Shown: piece by piece, positions 52,443-59,852 of the stretch | Layout: each line of letters opens with the position of its first letter | Position numbering within the stretch: the stretch's first letter is position 1 | Origin: Escherichia coli | GTDB lineage: Bacteria; Pseudomonadota; Gammaproteobacteria; Enterobacterales; Enterobacteriaceae | Length of the DNA: 64,000 nucleotides | Reading direction: 5' to 3' (one strand) | NCBI RefSeq assembly: GCF_024502345.1 | Contig: NZ_JALDNN010000001.1 | Translations under genes and position numbers: made by a program | Notes under the pieces: generated by a model | Databases searched by the model: none | Told to the model about the DNA's origin: nothing | What the model saw: the letters and a program-made list of their open reading frames with translations, nothing else

Positions 52443-53348
52443 ATGCGTCGAACGTTTATCAAAAAAGAAGGCGTCGTTATCACGACGCTGGCCCGTTATT
52501 TGTTGGGTGAAAAATGCGGTAATAGGTTGAAAACCATAGATGAGCTGGCAACTGAATGCCGTTCATCCGTTGGCCTGACGCAGGCCGCGTTGAAAACGCT
52601 GGAATCAAGCGGAGCGATACGGATTGAACGCCGTGGGCGCAATGGCAGTTATCTGGTCGAGATGGATAACAAAGCATTGCTGAGTCATGTGGATATCAAC
52701 AACGTGGTATGTGCGATGCCTTTGCCCTATACCCGCTTGTACGAAGGTTTAGCGAGCGGATTGAAAGCCCAGTTTGATGGCATTCCTTTTTACTATGCGC
52801 ATATGCGCGGCGCGGATATTCGCGTGGAGTGTTTACTTAACGGCGTGTATGACATGGCGGTGGTTTCCCGACTGGCGGCGGAAAGTTATCTCACGCAAAA
52901 AGGGTTTTGCCTCGCGCTGGAGTTGGGGCCGCACACCTACGTTGGCGAGCACCAGTTGATTTGCCGTAAAGGCGAGTCCGCAAACGTGAAGCGCGTGGGG
53001 CTGGATAACCGTTCGGCGGATCAGAAAATCATGACCGATGTTTTTTTTGGCGGTAGTGATGTGGAACGAGTCGATCTCTCTTATCACGAGAGTTTACAAC
53101 GCATTGTTAAAGGCGATGTCGATGCGGTGATCTGGAACGTGGTGGCGGAAAACGAACTGACCATGCTGGGATTAGAGGCGACGCCGCTCACAGACGATCC
53201 GCGATTTTTACAGGCCACCGAAGCCGTGGTCCTGACGCGAGTCGATGATTACCCAATGCAACAACTGCTGCGTGCCGTTGTAGATAAACACGCCCTGCTT
53301 GCCCATCAACAACGGGTGGTGAGTGGGGAACAGGAACCCAGTTATTAA
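52443..53348 (+). CDS. yhfZ: putative transcriptional regulator YhfZ
   Basis: 301 aa; first gene of the yhfZ-yhfS cluster. Confidence 0.8.
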   Translation: MRRTFIKKEGVVITTLARYLLGEKCGNRLKTIDELATECRSSVGLTQAALKTLESSGAIRIERRGRNGSYLVEMDNKALLSHVDINNVVCAMPLPYTRLYEGLASGLKAQFDGIPFYYAHMRGADIRVECLLNGVYDMAVVSRLAAESYLTQKGFCLALELGPHTYVGEHQLICRKGESANVKRVGLDNRSADQKIMTDVFFGGSDVERVDLSYHESLQRIVKGDVDAVIWNVVAENELTMLGLEATPLTDDPRFLQATEAVVLTRVDDYPMQQLLRAVVDKHALLAHQQRVVSGEQEPSY

Positions 53349-53364
53349 ACGAAAGGCATCTGAT

Positions 53365-53727
53365 ATGGAAACCAGACTCAACCTGCTTTGCGAGGCAGGC
53401 GTTATTGATAAGGACGTCTGCAAAGGCATGATGCAGGTCGTCAACGTACTGGAAAAAGAGTGCCATCTGCCGGTGCGCAGTGAGCAAGGAACGATGGCGA
53501 TGACACATATGGCGAGTGCACTGATGCGCAGTCGCCGTGGTGAAGAAATTGAGCCATTGGATAACGAGTTGCTGGCAGAACTGGCGCAATCCAGCCACTG
53601 GCAAGCCGTTGTGCAATTGCATCAGGTGTTGTTGAAGGAATTCGCACTGGAAGTTAACCCGTGTGAAGAAGGCTATTTGCTGGCCAACCTTTATGGATTA
53701 TGGATGGCTGCTAACGAAGAGGTTTGA
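53365..53727 (+). CDS. yhfY: small PRD-domain-like protein YhfY
   Basis: about 120 aa from METRLNLLCEAG; ORF track start is 14 codons upstream. Confidence 0.7.
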   Translation: METRLNLLCEAGVIDKDVCKGMMQVVNVLEKECHLPVRSEQGTMAMTHMASALMRSRRGEEIEPLDNELLAELAQSSHWQAVVQLHQVLLKEFALEVNPCEEGYLLANLYGLWMAANEEV

Positions 53728-53810
53728 AGCTCCCGACAAATCCACGTCGCACAACCTAAATATTCAAAAAAATGAATATTTAATTCAAGGAACAGAAACG
53801 AGGCAACAAG

Positions 53811-57439: not shown

Positions 57440-57450
57440 AAGGCACGACT

Positions 57451-58755
57451 ATGGATCTGTATATTCAGATTATCGTGGTGGCGTGCCTGACGGGTATGAC
57501 ATCGCTTCTGGCGCATCGCTCGGCGGCTGTTTTTCATGACGGCATCCGCCCGATCCTGCCGCAACTGATTGAAGGCTATATGAACCGTCGCGAGGCGGGG
57601 AGTATCGCTTTTGGTCTGAGCATTGGTTTTGTGGCCTCGGTGGGGATCTCTTTTACCCTGAAAACCGGGCTGCTCAACGCATGGTTACTCTTTCTTCCTA
57701 CCGATATCCTCGGCGTACTGGCGATAAACAGCCTGATGGCGTTTGGTCTTGGCGCTATCTGGGGCGTGTTGATCCTTACTTGCCTGTTGCCAGTAAACCA
57801 GCTGCTGACCGCGCTGCCGGTGGATGTATTAGGTAGCCTCGGGGAATTAAGCTCGCCGGTGGTTTCTGCTTTTGCACTGTTCCCGCTGGTGGCGATTTTC
57901 TACCAGTTTGGCTGGAAGCAAAGTCTGGTCGCCGCCGTGGTTGTTCTGATGACCCGTGTGGTAGTCGTGCGCTATTTCCCACATCTTAACCCTGAATCCA
58001 TCGAAATCTTTATTGGCATGGTGATGCTGCTGGGGATCGCGATAACTCACGACCTGCGTCATCGTGATGAAAATGATATTGATGCCAGCGGGCTTTCGGT
58101 GTTTGAAGAACGCACGTCGCGGATTATCAAAAACTTACCCTATATCGCCATCGTGGGAGCATTGATTGCCGCCGTTGCCAGCATGAAGATTTTCGCCGGC
58201 AGTGAAGTGTCGATCTTCACTCTGGAGAAAGCGTACTCCGCAGGCGTAACGCCGGAACAATCGCAAACGCTGATCAACCAGGCGGCACTGGCAGAATTTA
58301 TGCGCGGGCTGGGTTTTGTACCGTTGATTGCCACCACCGCCTTAGCAACGGGTGTGTATGCAGTTGCGGGCTTTACCTTTGTTTATGCGGTGGGCTATCT
58401 CTCGCCGAATCCGATGGTTGCAGCGGTATTAGGCGCAGTGGTTATTTCGGCGGAAGTCTTGCTGCTTCGTTCGATCGGCAAATGGCTGGGACGCTACCCG
58501 TCGGTGCGTAATGCGTCGGATAACATCCGTAACGCCATGAATATGCTGATGGAAGTGGCGCTGCTGGTCGGTTCGATTTTCGCAGCAATTAAGATGGCGG
58601 GTTATACCGGATTCTCTATCGCGGTTGCCATTTACTTCCTCAACGAATCCCTGGGCCGTCCGGTACAGAAAATGGCGGCACCGGTCGTGGCAGTAATGAT
58701 CACCGGTATTCTGCTGAATGTTCTTTACTGGCTTGGCCTGTTCGTTCCGGCTTAA
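57451..58755 (+). CDS. yhfT: polytopic inner-membrane protein YhfT (putative transporter)
   Basis: 434 aa; about 10-12 hydrophobic segments. Confidence 0.8.
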   Translation: MDLYIQIIVVACLTGMTSLLAHRSAAVFHDGIRPILPQLIEGYMNRREAGSIAFGLSIGFVASVGISFTLKTGLLNAWLLFLPTDILGVLAINSLMAFGLGAIWGVLILTCLLPVNQLLTALPVDVLGSLGELSSPVVSAFALFPLVAIFYQFGWKQSLVAAVVVLMTRVVVVRYFPHLNPESIEIFIGMVMLLGIAITHDLRHRDENDIDASGLSVFEERTSRIIKNLPYIAIVGALIAAVASMKIFAGSEVSIFTLEKAYSAGVTPEQSQTLINQAALAEFMRGLGFVPLIATTALATGVYAVAGFTFVYAVGYLSPNPMVAAVLGAVVISAEVLLLRSIGKWLGRYPSVRNASDNIRNAMNMLMEVALLVGSIFAAIKMAGYTGFSIAVAIYFLNESLGRPVQKMAAPVVAVMITGILLNVLYWLGLFVPA

Positions 58756-58766
58756 GGAAGGCACCT

Positions 58767-59852
58767 ATGAAGACGTTTCCTCTGCAAAGCCTGACGATTA
58801 TTGAGGCGCAGCAAAAGCAGTTTGCGCTGGTGGATAGCATTTGTCGCCATTTCCCCGGCAGCGAGTTTCTTACTGGCGGTGATTTAGGCTTAACGCCAGG
58901 ACTGAATCAACCGCGCGTTACCCAGCGTGTGGAACAGGTGCTGGCTGATGCATTTCACGCACAGGCTGCGGCGCTGGTGCAGGGCGCGGGGACTGGCGCG
59001 ATTCGCGCCGGGCTGGCTGCTTTGCTCAAACCGGGGCAGCGTCTTCTGGTGCATGACGCGCCTGTTTACCCGACGACACGGGTTATTATTGAGCAGATGG
59101 GGCTGACGCTTATTACTGTTGATTTCAATGACCTGTCGGCACTGAAGCAGGTCGTCGACGAGCAACAACCGGATGCGGCGCTGGTGCAGCATACGCGCCA
59201 GCAGCCGCAGGACAGCTACGTGCTGGCAGATGTGCTGGCAACGTTGCGCGCGGCAGGTGTTCCAGCGTTAACCGATGACAACTATGCGGTGATGAAGGTG
59301 GCGCGAATCGGCTGTGAATGCGGCGCGAATGTCTCGACATTTTCCTGCTTCAAGCTATTTGGGCCAGAGGGTGTTGGTGCAGTGGTCGGCGATGCTGATG
59401 TTATCAACCGTATTCGCGCCACGCTTTACTCCGGCGGTAGCCAGATCCAGGGCGCACAGGCGCTGGAAGTATTGCGTGGGCTGGTGTTCGCGCCAGTGAT
59501 GCACGCGGTGCAGGCAGGGGTATCTGAACGGTTGCTGGCTTTGCTTAACGGTGGTGCGGTGCCGGAAGTGAAAAGCGCCGTCATTGCCAATGCGCAGTCG
59601 AAGGTGTTGATTGTCGAGTTTCATCAGCCGATTGCCGCCAGGGTGCTGGAAGAGGCGCAAAAGCGCGGTGCCTTGCCTTACCCAGTGGGTGCAGAGTCGA
59701 AATATGAAATCCCGCCGCTTTTTTATCGACTTTCCGGAACGTTCCGCCAGGCGAATCCGCAACTCGAACATTGTGCGATTCGCATTAACCCGAATCGCAG
59801 CGGTGAAGAGACGGTGCTGCGGATTTTGCGTGAGAGTATTGCGAGTATTTAA
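58767..59852 (+). CDS. yhfS: PLP-dependent enzyme (aminotransferase / C-S lyase-like) YhfS
   Basis: 361 aa. Confidence 0.8.
   Translation: MKTFPLQSLTIIEAQQKQFALVDSICRHFPGSEFLTGGDLGLTPGLNQPRVTQRVEQVLADAFHAQAAALVQGAGTGAIRAGLAALLKPGQRLLVHDAPVYPTTRVIIEQMGLTLITVDFNDLSALKQVVDEQQPDAALVQHTRQQPQDSYVLADVLATLRAAGVPALTDDNYAVMKVARIGCECGANVSTFSCFKLFGPEGVGAVVGDADVINRIRATLYSGGSQIQGAQALEVLRGLVFAPVMHAVQAGVSERLLALLNGGAVPEVKSAVIANAQSKVLIVEFHQPIAARVLEEAQKRGALPYPVGAESKYEIPPLFYRLSGTFRQANPQLEHCAIRINPNRSGEETVLRILRESIASI

Follow-up and report, generated by a model that had tools for sequence, protein, structure and literature searches.

The window analysed here is a stretch of 64,000 nucleotides of Escherichia coli DNA (contig NZ_JALDNN010000001.1 of assembly GCF_024502345.1), and the subject of this report is the yhf cluster that it carries. 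The open reading frame (ORF) list places eight genes, yhfZ, yhfY, yhfX, yhfW, php, yhfU, yhfT, and yhfS, on the plus strand between positions 52443 and 59852, with names taken from the RefSeq annotation of an E. coli chromosome record that is 98.6% identical. These genes have long been known and named, and they represent a real, catalogued orphan cluster, probably for sugar-amine catabolism linked to the phosphotransferase system (PTS). New in the present work are the recurrence of the set across lineages, an operator, the PRD of YhfY, the fold of YhfU, the PTS-, amine-, and sugar-related neighbours, and the deletion of the cluster between repeats in strain O157:H7.

Organization and distribution of the yhf cluster

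A first-pass annotation of the window had described eight co-directional genes with overlapping or near-abutting boundaries. All eight ORFs are indeed intact and on the same strand, and no internal stop was found in any of them (Table 1). The TAATG and ATGA overlaps that it had pointed out lie exactly at the yhfX/yhfW junction (gcgTAATGgcg, 54970-54976; 1-nt overlap) and at the yhfW/php junction (ccctATGAgt, 56197-56200; 4-nt overlap). The description of near-abutting boundaries also suits the gaps between yhfZ and yhfY (16 nt), php and yhfU (10 nt), yhfU and yhfT (11 nt), and yhfT and yhfS (11 nt), but not the gap between yhfY and yhfX, which is 83 nt long and contains a conserved operator-like palindrome. 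On the 5' side the cluster is preceded by dam-rpe-gph-trpS, while frlR-frlD-frlC-frlB is situated on the 3' side on the opposite strand, so that frlRDCBA is convergent with yhf. The dN/dS ratios against E. albertii range from 0.045 to 0.15 per gene for all eight genes, with yhfT and yhfU showing the lowest values, and judged by these ratios all eight are under strong purifying selection and clearly functional. In 5058 of the 5426 complete E. coli genomes (93%), 80% or more of the region was recovered. For the 9.8-kb segment 51200-61000, the closest complete RefSeq E. coli sequences are ~98.7% identical, and the K-12-derived laboratory strains 97.6%, so the window does not derive from K-12.

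Table 1. Coordinates of the yhf genes and of the features surrounding them in the window
Feature	Position	Strand	Description
Left 43-nt direct repeat	52190..52232		Interspersed G+C-rich repeat; perfect copy
trpS intrinsic terminator	52300..52321	+	Strong; 9-bp stem with 5 GC pairs, then a T run; 5' limit of the yhf transcription units
Possible CRP-type site aaTGTGAagcgccTCGCCgttt	52350..52371		TGTGA and downstream TTT invariant in 8 genera; by inference only
Operator-like palindrome O1 ATCTTCATTTTAATGAAGAT	52394..52413		49 nt upstream of yhfZ
Operator-like palindrome O2, 1 mismatch	52418..52437		24 bp from O1; overlaps promoter-like hexamers before the yhfZ start
yhfZ	52443..53348	+	Regulator with HTH_41 and YhfZ_C ligand-binding-type domain; presumed O1-O3 binder
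yhfY	53365..53727	+	Stand-alone PRD protein; presumed PTS-phosphorylated co-regulator
Operator-like palindrome O3 ATATTCAAAAAAATGAATAT	53760..53779		51 nt upstream of yhfX, in the yhfY-yhfX gap
yhfX	53811..54974	+	Fold-type III alanine-racemase-like pyridoxal 5'-phosphate (PLP) enzyme, own family
yhfW	54974..56200	+	DeoB-type metallo-phosphomutase paralogue
php	56197..57075	+	Phosphotriesterase-family binuclear-metal amidohydrolase; candidate lactonase/esterase/N-deacylase
yhfU	57086..57439	+	DUF2620, RpiB/LacAB-fold protein
yhfT	57451..58755	+	Polytopic membrane protein PF10797; presumed permease
yhfS	58767..59852	+	Fold-type I PLP enzyme, Cys/Met-metabolism and desulfurase-like; accessory member
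Right 43-nt direct repeat	59897..59939		100% identical to the left copy, 7707 nt apart
Repetitive extragenic palindromic (REP)-type element	59947..60006	+	Between yhfS and convergent frlR; naRNA4 Rfam 30.4 bits vs gathering score 59.5, E 0.022

For the comparison with other bacteria, one genome per species was scanned with a 10-sequence alignment as the query. YhfT relatives were present in 481 species, and the best 80 loci of these were examined; the comparison loci bear labels such as L003 or L092, and their gene content was determined by BLAST of the eight E. coli proteins against the locus ORFs. The set composed of yhfZ, yhfY, yhfX, yhfW, php, yhfU, and yhfT recurs in Enterobacteriaceae and Yersiniaceae, Vibrionaceae, Sebaldella (Fusobacteria), Clostridia, and halophilic Bacilli, in a gene order that varies between the groups. 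The yhfS gene is absent from the clusters of Yersinia, Vibrionaceae, and some Clostridia, and yhfW from otherwise intact clusters of several Yersinia species. The association of the genes persists where YhfT identity is as low as 27-29%: L088 carries PRD-DUF2620-YhfT-phosphotriesterase (PTE)-YhfX-YhfW followed by a haloacid dehalogenase (HAD) sugar-type phosphatase, and L089 and L091 carry YhfW-YhfX-DUF2620-YhfT. No accessory family common to all lineages, beyond the eight genes, was found in the examined loci.

The genes that accompany the cluster are specific to lineages. An HPr gene follows yhfS in L003 and yhfW in L073/L075 and L076, an Enzyme I gene overlaps the end of yhfW in L069, and both are encoded in the L092 cluster; HPr and/or Enzyme I genes are located inside the cluster in at least four lineages other than that of E. 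coli. No canonical IIA, IIB, or IIC gene accompanies these embedded copies. A Lac/Chb-type PTS adjoins the cluster in five Vibrionaceae loci, and the last gene of that operon encodes a conserved 296-aa protein with no NCBIfam match (L067 5125-6012; homologues in L050, L059, L060, and L068). In L077 and L062 the cluster is flanked by genes for the 2-keto-3-deoxy-6-phosphogluconate (KDPG) aldolase Eda and kinases of the 2-keto-3-deoxygluconate (KDG) type; the PfkB kinases beside the cluster at these loci score best as KDG kinases. The nagB gene is situated directly after the last structural gene (yhfX or yhfW) in four Bacilli loci, its product scoring 293 bits against an equivalog cut-off of 237. 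Further neighbours encode FAD amine oxidases (DAO/amine-oxidase) in the distant clusters L091 and L092, aldo-keto reductases in L003 and L092, a sugar-type binding protein in L092, and, next to the cluster, phosphatases of several kinds (HAD, ComB-like, and acid). None of the eight yhf products themselves was recognized as a kinase in the NCBIfam comparison.

Regulatory DNA, gene products, and flanks

The 20-bp palindrome ATnTTCA-N6-TGAAnAT has three matches in the 64-kb window against 0.12 expected, and all three are located in yhf regulatory DNA. It recurs at matching relative positions in Citrobacter, Klebsiella, Buttiauxella, Cedecea, Yersinia, and Vibrionaceae, and a Sebaldella genome holds three perfect copies. 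Aligned across 11 genera, the yhfY-yhfX gap shows conservation only in the palindrome and at the ribosome-binding site. Since YhfZ is a regulator co-inherited with the motif, it quite probably binds the palindrome at its own promoter and before yhfX. In Vibrionaceae, an extra copy with one mismatch (ATCCTCAnTTTATTGAAnAT; ATCATCA... in L059) lies ~180 nt inside php at a conserved position, at about 8900 in L051, L053, L054, L057, L059, L061-L063, L065, and L080; it may act as an internal operator or simply reflect constraints on the coding sequence.

Because operator copies precede both yhfZ (two) and yhfX (one), two co-regulated promoters with the units yhfZY and yhfXW-php-yhfUTS appear more likely than the single tight eight-gene operon of the first-pass annotation. 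In favour of the latter, no terminator-like site was detected between genes inside the cluster, including the yhfY-yhfX gap, so read-through may contribute. It is called into question by the 83-nt gap with its third operator copy, and by the operon table reproduced in PMC4448311, in which php-yhfSTUWX is listed as one operon and yhfZ and yhfY are left out. The sigma-70 scan indicated promoter-like hexamers at 52415-52442, but it performed at chance level (6 sites vs 5.9 expected), and no promoter is therefore claimed from it. A promoter-like -10 hexamer abuts the ATG of yhfZ, and no recognizable Shine-Dalgarno sequence precedes this gene (upstream 20 nt, cattttattgaaaatatatt, window 52423-52445), so its mRNA might be leaderless or very poorly translated. 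Approximately 85 nt upstream of yhfZ, within flanking DNA that is variable among eight genera, the invariant TGTGA may be half of a CRP site; the second half-site matches at only 3/5 positions. A riboswitch, or a ribonucleic antiterminator (RAT)-type target for a PRD protein, was also considered and rejected, because the Rfam scan of 52100-60200 returned nothing above gathering scores and the yhfY-yhfX gap folds no better than shuffled sequence (z -0.64).

The family calls made in the first-pass annotation agree with the Pfam, NCBIfam, and PDB matches of the individual proteins. YhfZ matches NF041241 (372 bits vs a cut-off of 260) and the Pfam families HTH_41 (1.4e-18) and YhfZ_C (1.3e-83), and its C-terminal domain corresponds to PDB 2OZZ, labelled 'hypothetical protein'. 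The GntR name given to it in RefSeq is carried by NF041241, and Pfam shows no GntR domain. YhfY (120 aa) matches the Pfam PRD family PF00874 (E 3.9e-4), and the residues of the classical PRD phospho-histidine motif, His48, Ala52, and Arg55, do not vary among 70 homologues. Firmicutes and distant metagenomic lineages also have the second PRD histidine, which is replaced by Asn in Proteobacteria. A clostridial homologue matches the PRD regions of GlcT and LicT; against TIGR03582, the PRD model of the EF_0829-0839/AHA_3910 cluster, YhfY scores 29 bits, below the cut-off of 69. Judged by the Pfam match and the conserved histidine, YhfY is a true PRD domain.

The yhfU gene is located directly upstream of yhfT in every cluster examined. 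YhfU, with 117 aa and a DUF2620 match of 4.9e-52, gives an AlphaFold (AF2) model with a mean confidence (pLDDT) of 96, and its best Foldseek matches are RpiB/LacAB proteins (TM score 0.73, E 3e-4, to the RpiB of T. brucei and T. cruzi). An invariant Cys52-x-Thr/Ser54-Gly-x-Gly loop after strand 3 aligns with the catalytic Cys-Gly-Thr loop of RpiB (profile DyylGaCnsGaGaalsi with DRALMICGTGLGVAISA), so YhfU shares the fold and the catalytic Cys-x-Thr loop of the RpiB/LacAB isomerases. The matches to the corresponding family models were not significant (Pfam LacAB_rpiB, E 0.14; PDB RpiB, E 0.3), and YhfU lacks the N-terminal Asp-His of RpiB, its N-terminus reading KIGVAGL and its length being 117 aa vs about 150. 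A PTS IIB protein carries a phosphorylatable Cys (or His) in the loop after strand 1, where it receives the phosphoryl group from IIA or HPr. The identification of YhfU as a canonical IIB is unsupported: its invariant Cys comes after strand 3, the fold is of the RpiB type, and the 50 Foldseek matches listed include no IIB. For a possible relationship of YhfU to the 'SFCGS' proteins of the EF_0829-0839/AHA_3910 clusters, no NCBIfam match appeared up to E 10. YhfT has ~12 hydrophobic segments and a mean hydropathy (GRAVY) of 0.93 and belongs to PF10797; its predicted model is confident and has no solved structural relative. No relationship to a known IIC family was found, and YhfT as a PTS Enzyme IIC is rejected at the level of detectable homology. 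At L087 (1068-3765), a lone YhfT homologue with 36% identity occurs without DUF2620 or the enzymes; it is situated directly upstream of an Orn/Lys/Arg decarboxylase (OKR_DC_1) gene and next to thymidylate kinase, and may represent a separate subfamily with a link to basic amino acids.

The four enzymes resemble known families without belonging to their characterized members. YhfX corresponds to PDB 4KBX ('Uncharacterized protein YhfX'), with an alanine-racemase-type fold and an invariant PLP lysine, Lys61; its family profile gives no better than E 8e-5 against alanine racemase, over the N-terminal barrel, and 1e-3 against D-threonine aldolase. As an alanine or ornithine racemase it remains below the cut-offs, the best and very weak NCBIfam match being Orr at 28.6 bits vs 480. 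YhfW aligns with the Bacillus cereus phosphopentomutase 3M8W (E 1e-31) and keeps all of the DS..G, GDT..GH, ADHGNDP, and HTRE motifs, but it scores well below the deoB equivalog cut-offs (TIGR01696, 146 bits vs 341.2; NF003766, 183 vs 256). RefSeq takes the name 'phosphopentomutase' from NF009049, a model that YhfW matches over the full length with 740 bits; we take this model to be built around the YhfW subfamily, and the name would therefore not be independent evidence. YhfS corresponds to PDB 4J8L ('Uncharacterized protein YhfS'), with a Cys/Met-type PLP fold and an invariant PLP lysine, Lys196. Its family profile matches methionine gamma-lyase (2e-10) over residues 45-221 only and shows a remote likeness to cysteine desulfurases too, and as a methionine gamma-lyase or cystathionine-type lyase it remains below the cut-offs (best, 41.8 bits vs 666). 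Php is identical to PDB 1BF6/4LEF, matches NF007373 with 650 bits, and belongs to the wider PTE family. It reaches the phospho-furanose lactonase model at E 7e-27 and the Lmo2620-type PDB 3PNZ at E 1.7e-32, and is far below the cut-offs both as OPH (96.9 bits vs 500) and as phospho-furanose lactonase (94.3 vs 630). The mammalian PTER, of the phosphotriesterase-related family, is an N-acetyltaurine hydrolase, that is, an amidase (PMC11374699); together with the lactonase relatives it indicates that the chemistry of the Php family spans lactones, esters, and N-acyl amides. At the level of sequence models, then, each specific test of enzyme-family membership fails at the equivalog cut-off.

Regarding the flanks, the first-pass annotation had taken the adjacent frl locus as a clue to a related nutritional niche. 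This does not hold: in the comparison, which covered 80 species loci together with E. coli records, only a subset of E. coli had frl next to yhf. The genes yhfL-cysG-nir come immediately after yhfS in other Escherichia, Citrobacter, Klebsiella, Buttiauxella, Cedecea, and B2-type E. coli; in the B2-type strain 4/0 (L086 12548-13074), for example, yhfS precedes yhfL-cysG-nirC without frl genes. The 22 other loci that share the dam-rpe-gph-trpS upstream synteny have no frl within reach. Conversely, strain O157:H7 (L085) has lost the whole yhf cluster and retains frlR and frlD at the junction. Since its trpS/frlR junction (L085 1440-1640) holds exactly one copy of the 43-nt repeat, without the 7.7-kb cluster, where the window has two, clean loss of the cluster, or its gain, by recombination between the repeats fits these data. 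The frlD of O157:H7 is annotated as a pseudogene with an internal stop (L085 2437-3092), so the frl operon is variable itself. In the window, the longest ORFs of frlC (61625-62542, 305 aa) and frlB (62505-63548, 347 aa) overlap and exceed the annotated products because of upstream in-frame start codons, which is nothing unusual.

A candidate pathway and the alternative explanations

The statement that the substrate of the cluster has not been established is borne out, as the searchable literature yielded no functional assignment for the yhf genes. The mentions found comprised strain lists, a note on an attenuator of the bacterial interspersed mosaic element (BIME) type for yhfZ, a knockout screen that picked up yhfZ, and, for yhfW, a weak gap-filling guess (E 0.47). 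Four of the products have been crystallised (4KBX, 4J8L, 2OZZ, and 1BF6/4LEF), and all entries are labelled uncharacterized or hypothetical. The first-pass annotation had suggested uptake and breakdown of a phosphorylated or amino-substituted molecule, which fits the comparative context, namely PRD, HPr, and Enzyme I on the one hand and NagB, amine oxidases, phosphatases, and KDPG genes on the other. The reading that we prefer, and to which we give an even chance, is that the cluster is a self-contained, substrate-inducible catabolic module, wired to the PTS, in which a sugar-amine is handled in phosphorylated form. Candidate substrates are an amino sugar, a sugar amino acid or amino-aldonate, and a glycated amine. 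The module is proposed because the set is conserved in five major lineages with shuffled order, down to 27-29% YhfT identity, because purifying selection acts on all eight genes, and because the operator is conserved as well. The link to the PTS is suggested by the PRD motif of YhfY, the HPr and Enzyme I genes inside clusters, and the Lac/Chb-type PTS nearby. Phosphate chemistry is indicated by the mutase motifs of YhfW, the phospho-furanose lactonase relatives of Php, and the phosphatase neighbours; amine chemistry by the two PLP enzymes, NagB in Bacilli, and the amine oxidases of L091/L092; and sugar chemistry by the RpiB/LacAB fold of YhfU, the aldo-keto reductases, the binding protein, and Eda with the KDG kinases.

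In the proposed scheme, YhfZ would repress the units yhfZY and yhfXW-php-yhfUTS from O1-O3, and YhfY would report PTS status to it, with HPr~P or a IIB-like protein as the donor; we lean towards the view that the two proteins act like a split PRD-containing regulator that senses the PTS. YhfT would import the compound together with YhfU. Since no kinase is encoded and HPr and Enzyme I are embedded in clusters, YhfU-YhfT might phosphorylate the substrate from HPr~P via Cys52 of YhfU, a step that we rate as doubtful because YhfU is isomerase-like and YhfT has no recognizable IIC relationship. The alternative, an RpiB-like isomerase function for YhfU with YhfT as an ordinary secondary carrier, is possible, if a little short of an even chance. 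Inside the cell, Php would open a lactone or ester or remove an N-acyl group, YhfW would move phosphate between hydroxyls, and YhfX, with YhfS where present, would perform PLP chemistry at the freed alpha-amino centre, that is, racemisation or elimination with deamination. The products passed on to central metabolism would be either an amino-sugar 6-phosphate, as the NagB neighbour in Bacilli suggests, or a 2-keto-3-deoxy acid, as suggested by Eda/KdgK in two lineages. The order of the enzyme and product steps, and the substrate, are entirely inferred, and the origin of the phosphate is the most interesting point of the pathway. In its boldest form, which we hold to be rather unlikely, the scheme makes YhfU-YhfT a new kind of HPr-dependent group translocator, with an RpiB-fold Cys phosphocarrier and a split YhfZ and PRD sensor, for a widespread sugar-amine nutrient.

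Several points weigh against such a module. No experiment ties any yhf protein to a substrate, and the binding of the palindromes by YhfZ is deduced from co-inheritance only. No IIA is encoded in any yhf cluster, and YhfU resembles the isomerase RpiB rather than a IIB phosphocarrier. The chemistry of the Php family is broad (lactones, esters, and N-acetyl amides as in PTER, PMC11374699). The accessory neighbours vary by lineage, and each could belong to an unrelated adjacent operon; moreover, the end product would be an amino sugar according to NagB and a keto-deoxy acid according to Eda/KdgK, and only one of these routes can be the main one.

Two alternatives concern the substrate, and we consider both improbable. 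According to one, the compound broken down is a basic amino acid in glycated form (lysine or ornithine as an Amadori or Heyns product), related to fructoselysine, and the cluster complements frl, which is convergent and adjacent here and in many E. coli. The very weak best NCBIfam match of YhfX to ornithine racemase (28.6 bits), the decarboxylase beside the lone YhfT homologue of L087, and the DAO/amine-oxidase genes of L091 and L092 point the same way, as this superfamily includes fructosyl-amine oxidases. Against it, frl is absent from the 22 loci with shared upstream synteny and from B2-type E. coli, O157:H7 keeps frlR and frlD yet has lost yhf, and no SIS/FrlB-type deglycase is present in any yhf cluster, the PfkB kinases of L077/L062 scoring best as KDG kinases. 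The other proposes a pentofuranose-type substrate, for instance a 5-phospho-pentono-lactone or else an amino-pentose or amino-pentonate that stems from nucleoside or ribose chemistry, with Php as a 5-phospho-furanose lactonase and YhfW as a true 1,5-phosphopentomutase. The relationship of YhfW to phosphopentomutases, its nearest relatives, with all catalytic motifs kept, would suit these roles, as would the lactonase matches of Php (E 7e-27; 3PNZ, E 1.7e-32) and the ribose-5-phosphate isomerase B fold of YhfU. The scores of YhfW and Php, however, are far under the equivalog cut-offs (146 vs 341 and 94 vs 630), nothing else related to nucleosides or pentoses occurs in the neighbourhoods, several Yersinia species have intact clusters without yhfW, and the NagB and Eda/KdgK neighbours point to hexose-sized products.

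Other alternatives question the role of the PTS or the function itself. The PTS link could be regulatory only, with YhfT as an ion-coupled carrier (the substrate being phosphorylated or not), YhfU as a cytoplasmic isomerase, and HPr with YhfY exerting catabolite control. We regard this as possible though not likely. PRD regulators of the BglG/LicT/MtlR type are classically controlled by HPr, YhfU is RpiB-like, its Cys-x-Thr coinciding with the catalytic dyad of the isomerase, YhfT shows no relationship to IIC proteins, and no cluster has a IIA. Such purely regulatory coupling leaves unexplained, however, the absence of a kinase beside a phosphomutase and phospho-sugar-type enzymes, the dedicated HPr/Enzyme I copies in the clusters of several lineages, and the constant pairing of yhfU and yhfT. 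Finally, the yhf genes could be a cryptic or decaying remnant without present function in E. coli, in line with the lack of a phenotype or induction condition in the literature, the dispensability of the whole cluster (naturally deleted in O157:H7), and a yhfZ without an obvious Shine-Dalgarno sequence. The selection data (eight intact ORFs with dN/dS 0.045-0.15) make this very unlikely; besides, 93% of complete E. coli genomes carry the cluster, and the gene set and operator are conserved across lineages.

Comparison with characterized systems

Within the E. coli 'y-ome', the yhf genes rank with the most conserved members (93% of complete genomes), and four of their products have been crystallised; the analysis offers a defined operator, the residues YhfY H48 and YhfU C52, the natural deletion in O157:H7, and a substrate class narrowed to phosphorylated sugar-amines. 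If YhfU-YhfT were a permease of the PTS type, the PTS would gain a new transporter architecture after 60 years of study; otherwise, the cluster probably marks an unrecognized nutrient common to gut, marine, and halophilic bacteria.

Among known systems, frlABCDR is likewise a catabolic locus for a sugar-amine conjugate and adjoins yhf here, but it shares no homologous enzymes with yhf, its adjacency is not conserved, and it relies on an APC-type permease and a PfkB kinase. The individual proteins also have partial counterparts, the nearest being DeoB, RpiB/LacAB, the PTE-family lactonases or amidases, and the fold-type I and III PLP enzymes. YhfW conserves the catalytic Thr and the metal-ligand motifs of DeoB, while its cap (substrate) domain is divergent and its scores are below the deoB equivalog cut-offs. 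Php shares the TIM-barrel binuclear-metal fold of the PTE-family hydrolases (E 1e-27 to 1e-33), which include PTER and phospho-sugar lactonases, but it is far below every curated equivalog cut-off and its genomic partners differ. The lactonases in question, Lmo2620 and Mycoplasma enzymes, were reportedly characterized by the Raushel group. YhfU resembles RpiB/LacAB in its fold (TM 0.73) and in the Cys-x-Thr-Gly-x-Gly loop after strand 3; in contrast to these isomerases, it is ~30 residues shorter, lacks the N-terminal Asp-His and the C-terminal Arg/His phosphate-binding residues, and is always paired with a membrane protein. The YhfU-YhfT transporter pair has no characterized counterpart.

Regarding regulation, YhfY has the signature of the PRD regulators (the BglG/LicT antiterminators and the MtlR/LicR/LevR activators), including a phosphorylatable His-x6-Arg, and is encoded with HPr and Enzyme I in other lineages. 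Unlike these regulators, it consists of a single PRD without an RNA- or DNA-binding domain, the DNA-binding function residing on the separate YhfZ, and its second PRD histidine is Asn in Proteobacteria. The D-glucosaminate pathway of Salmonella, dgaABCDEF, reportedly described by Miller et al. (2013) in J Bacteriol, is PTS-coupled and handles a sugar amino acid: uptake itself phosphorylates the substrate, which makes a kinase superfluous; a fold-type I PLP enzyme then converts the phosphorylated compound, by elimination of the amine, into a 2-keto-3-deoxy-phospho-acid, and an Eda-type aldolase cleaves the latter. The yhf cluster likewise lacks a kinase gene, and Eda and KdgK are its neighbours at two loci. 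Whereas dga has a mannose-family EIIABCD and a sigma-54 activator, yhf has no recognizable EII and a YhfZ/PRD regulator pair, and it adds a PTE-family hydrolase, a DeoB-type mutase, and a fold-type III PLP enzyme. By analogy, yhf appears closest in logic to PTS-coupled sugar-amine routes such as dga and to PRD-regulated sugar operons.

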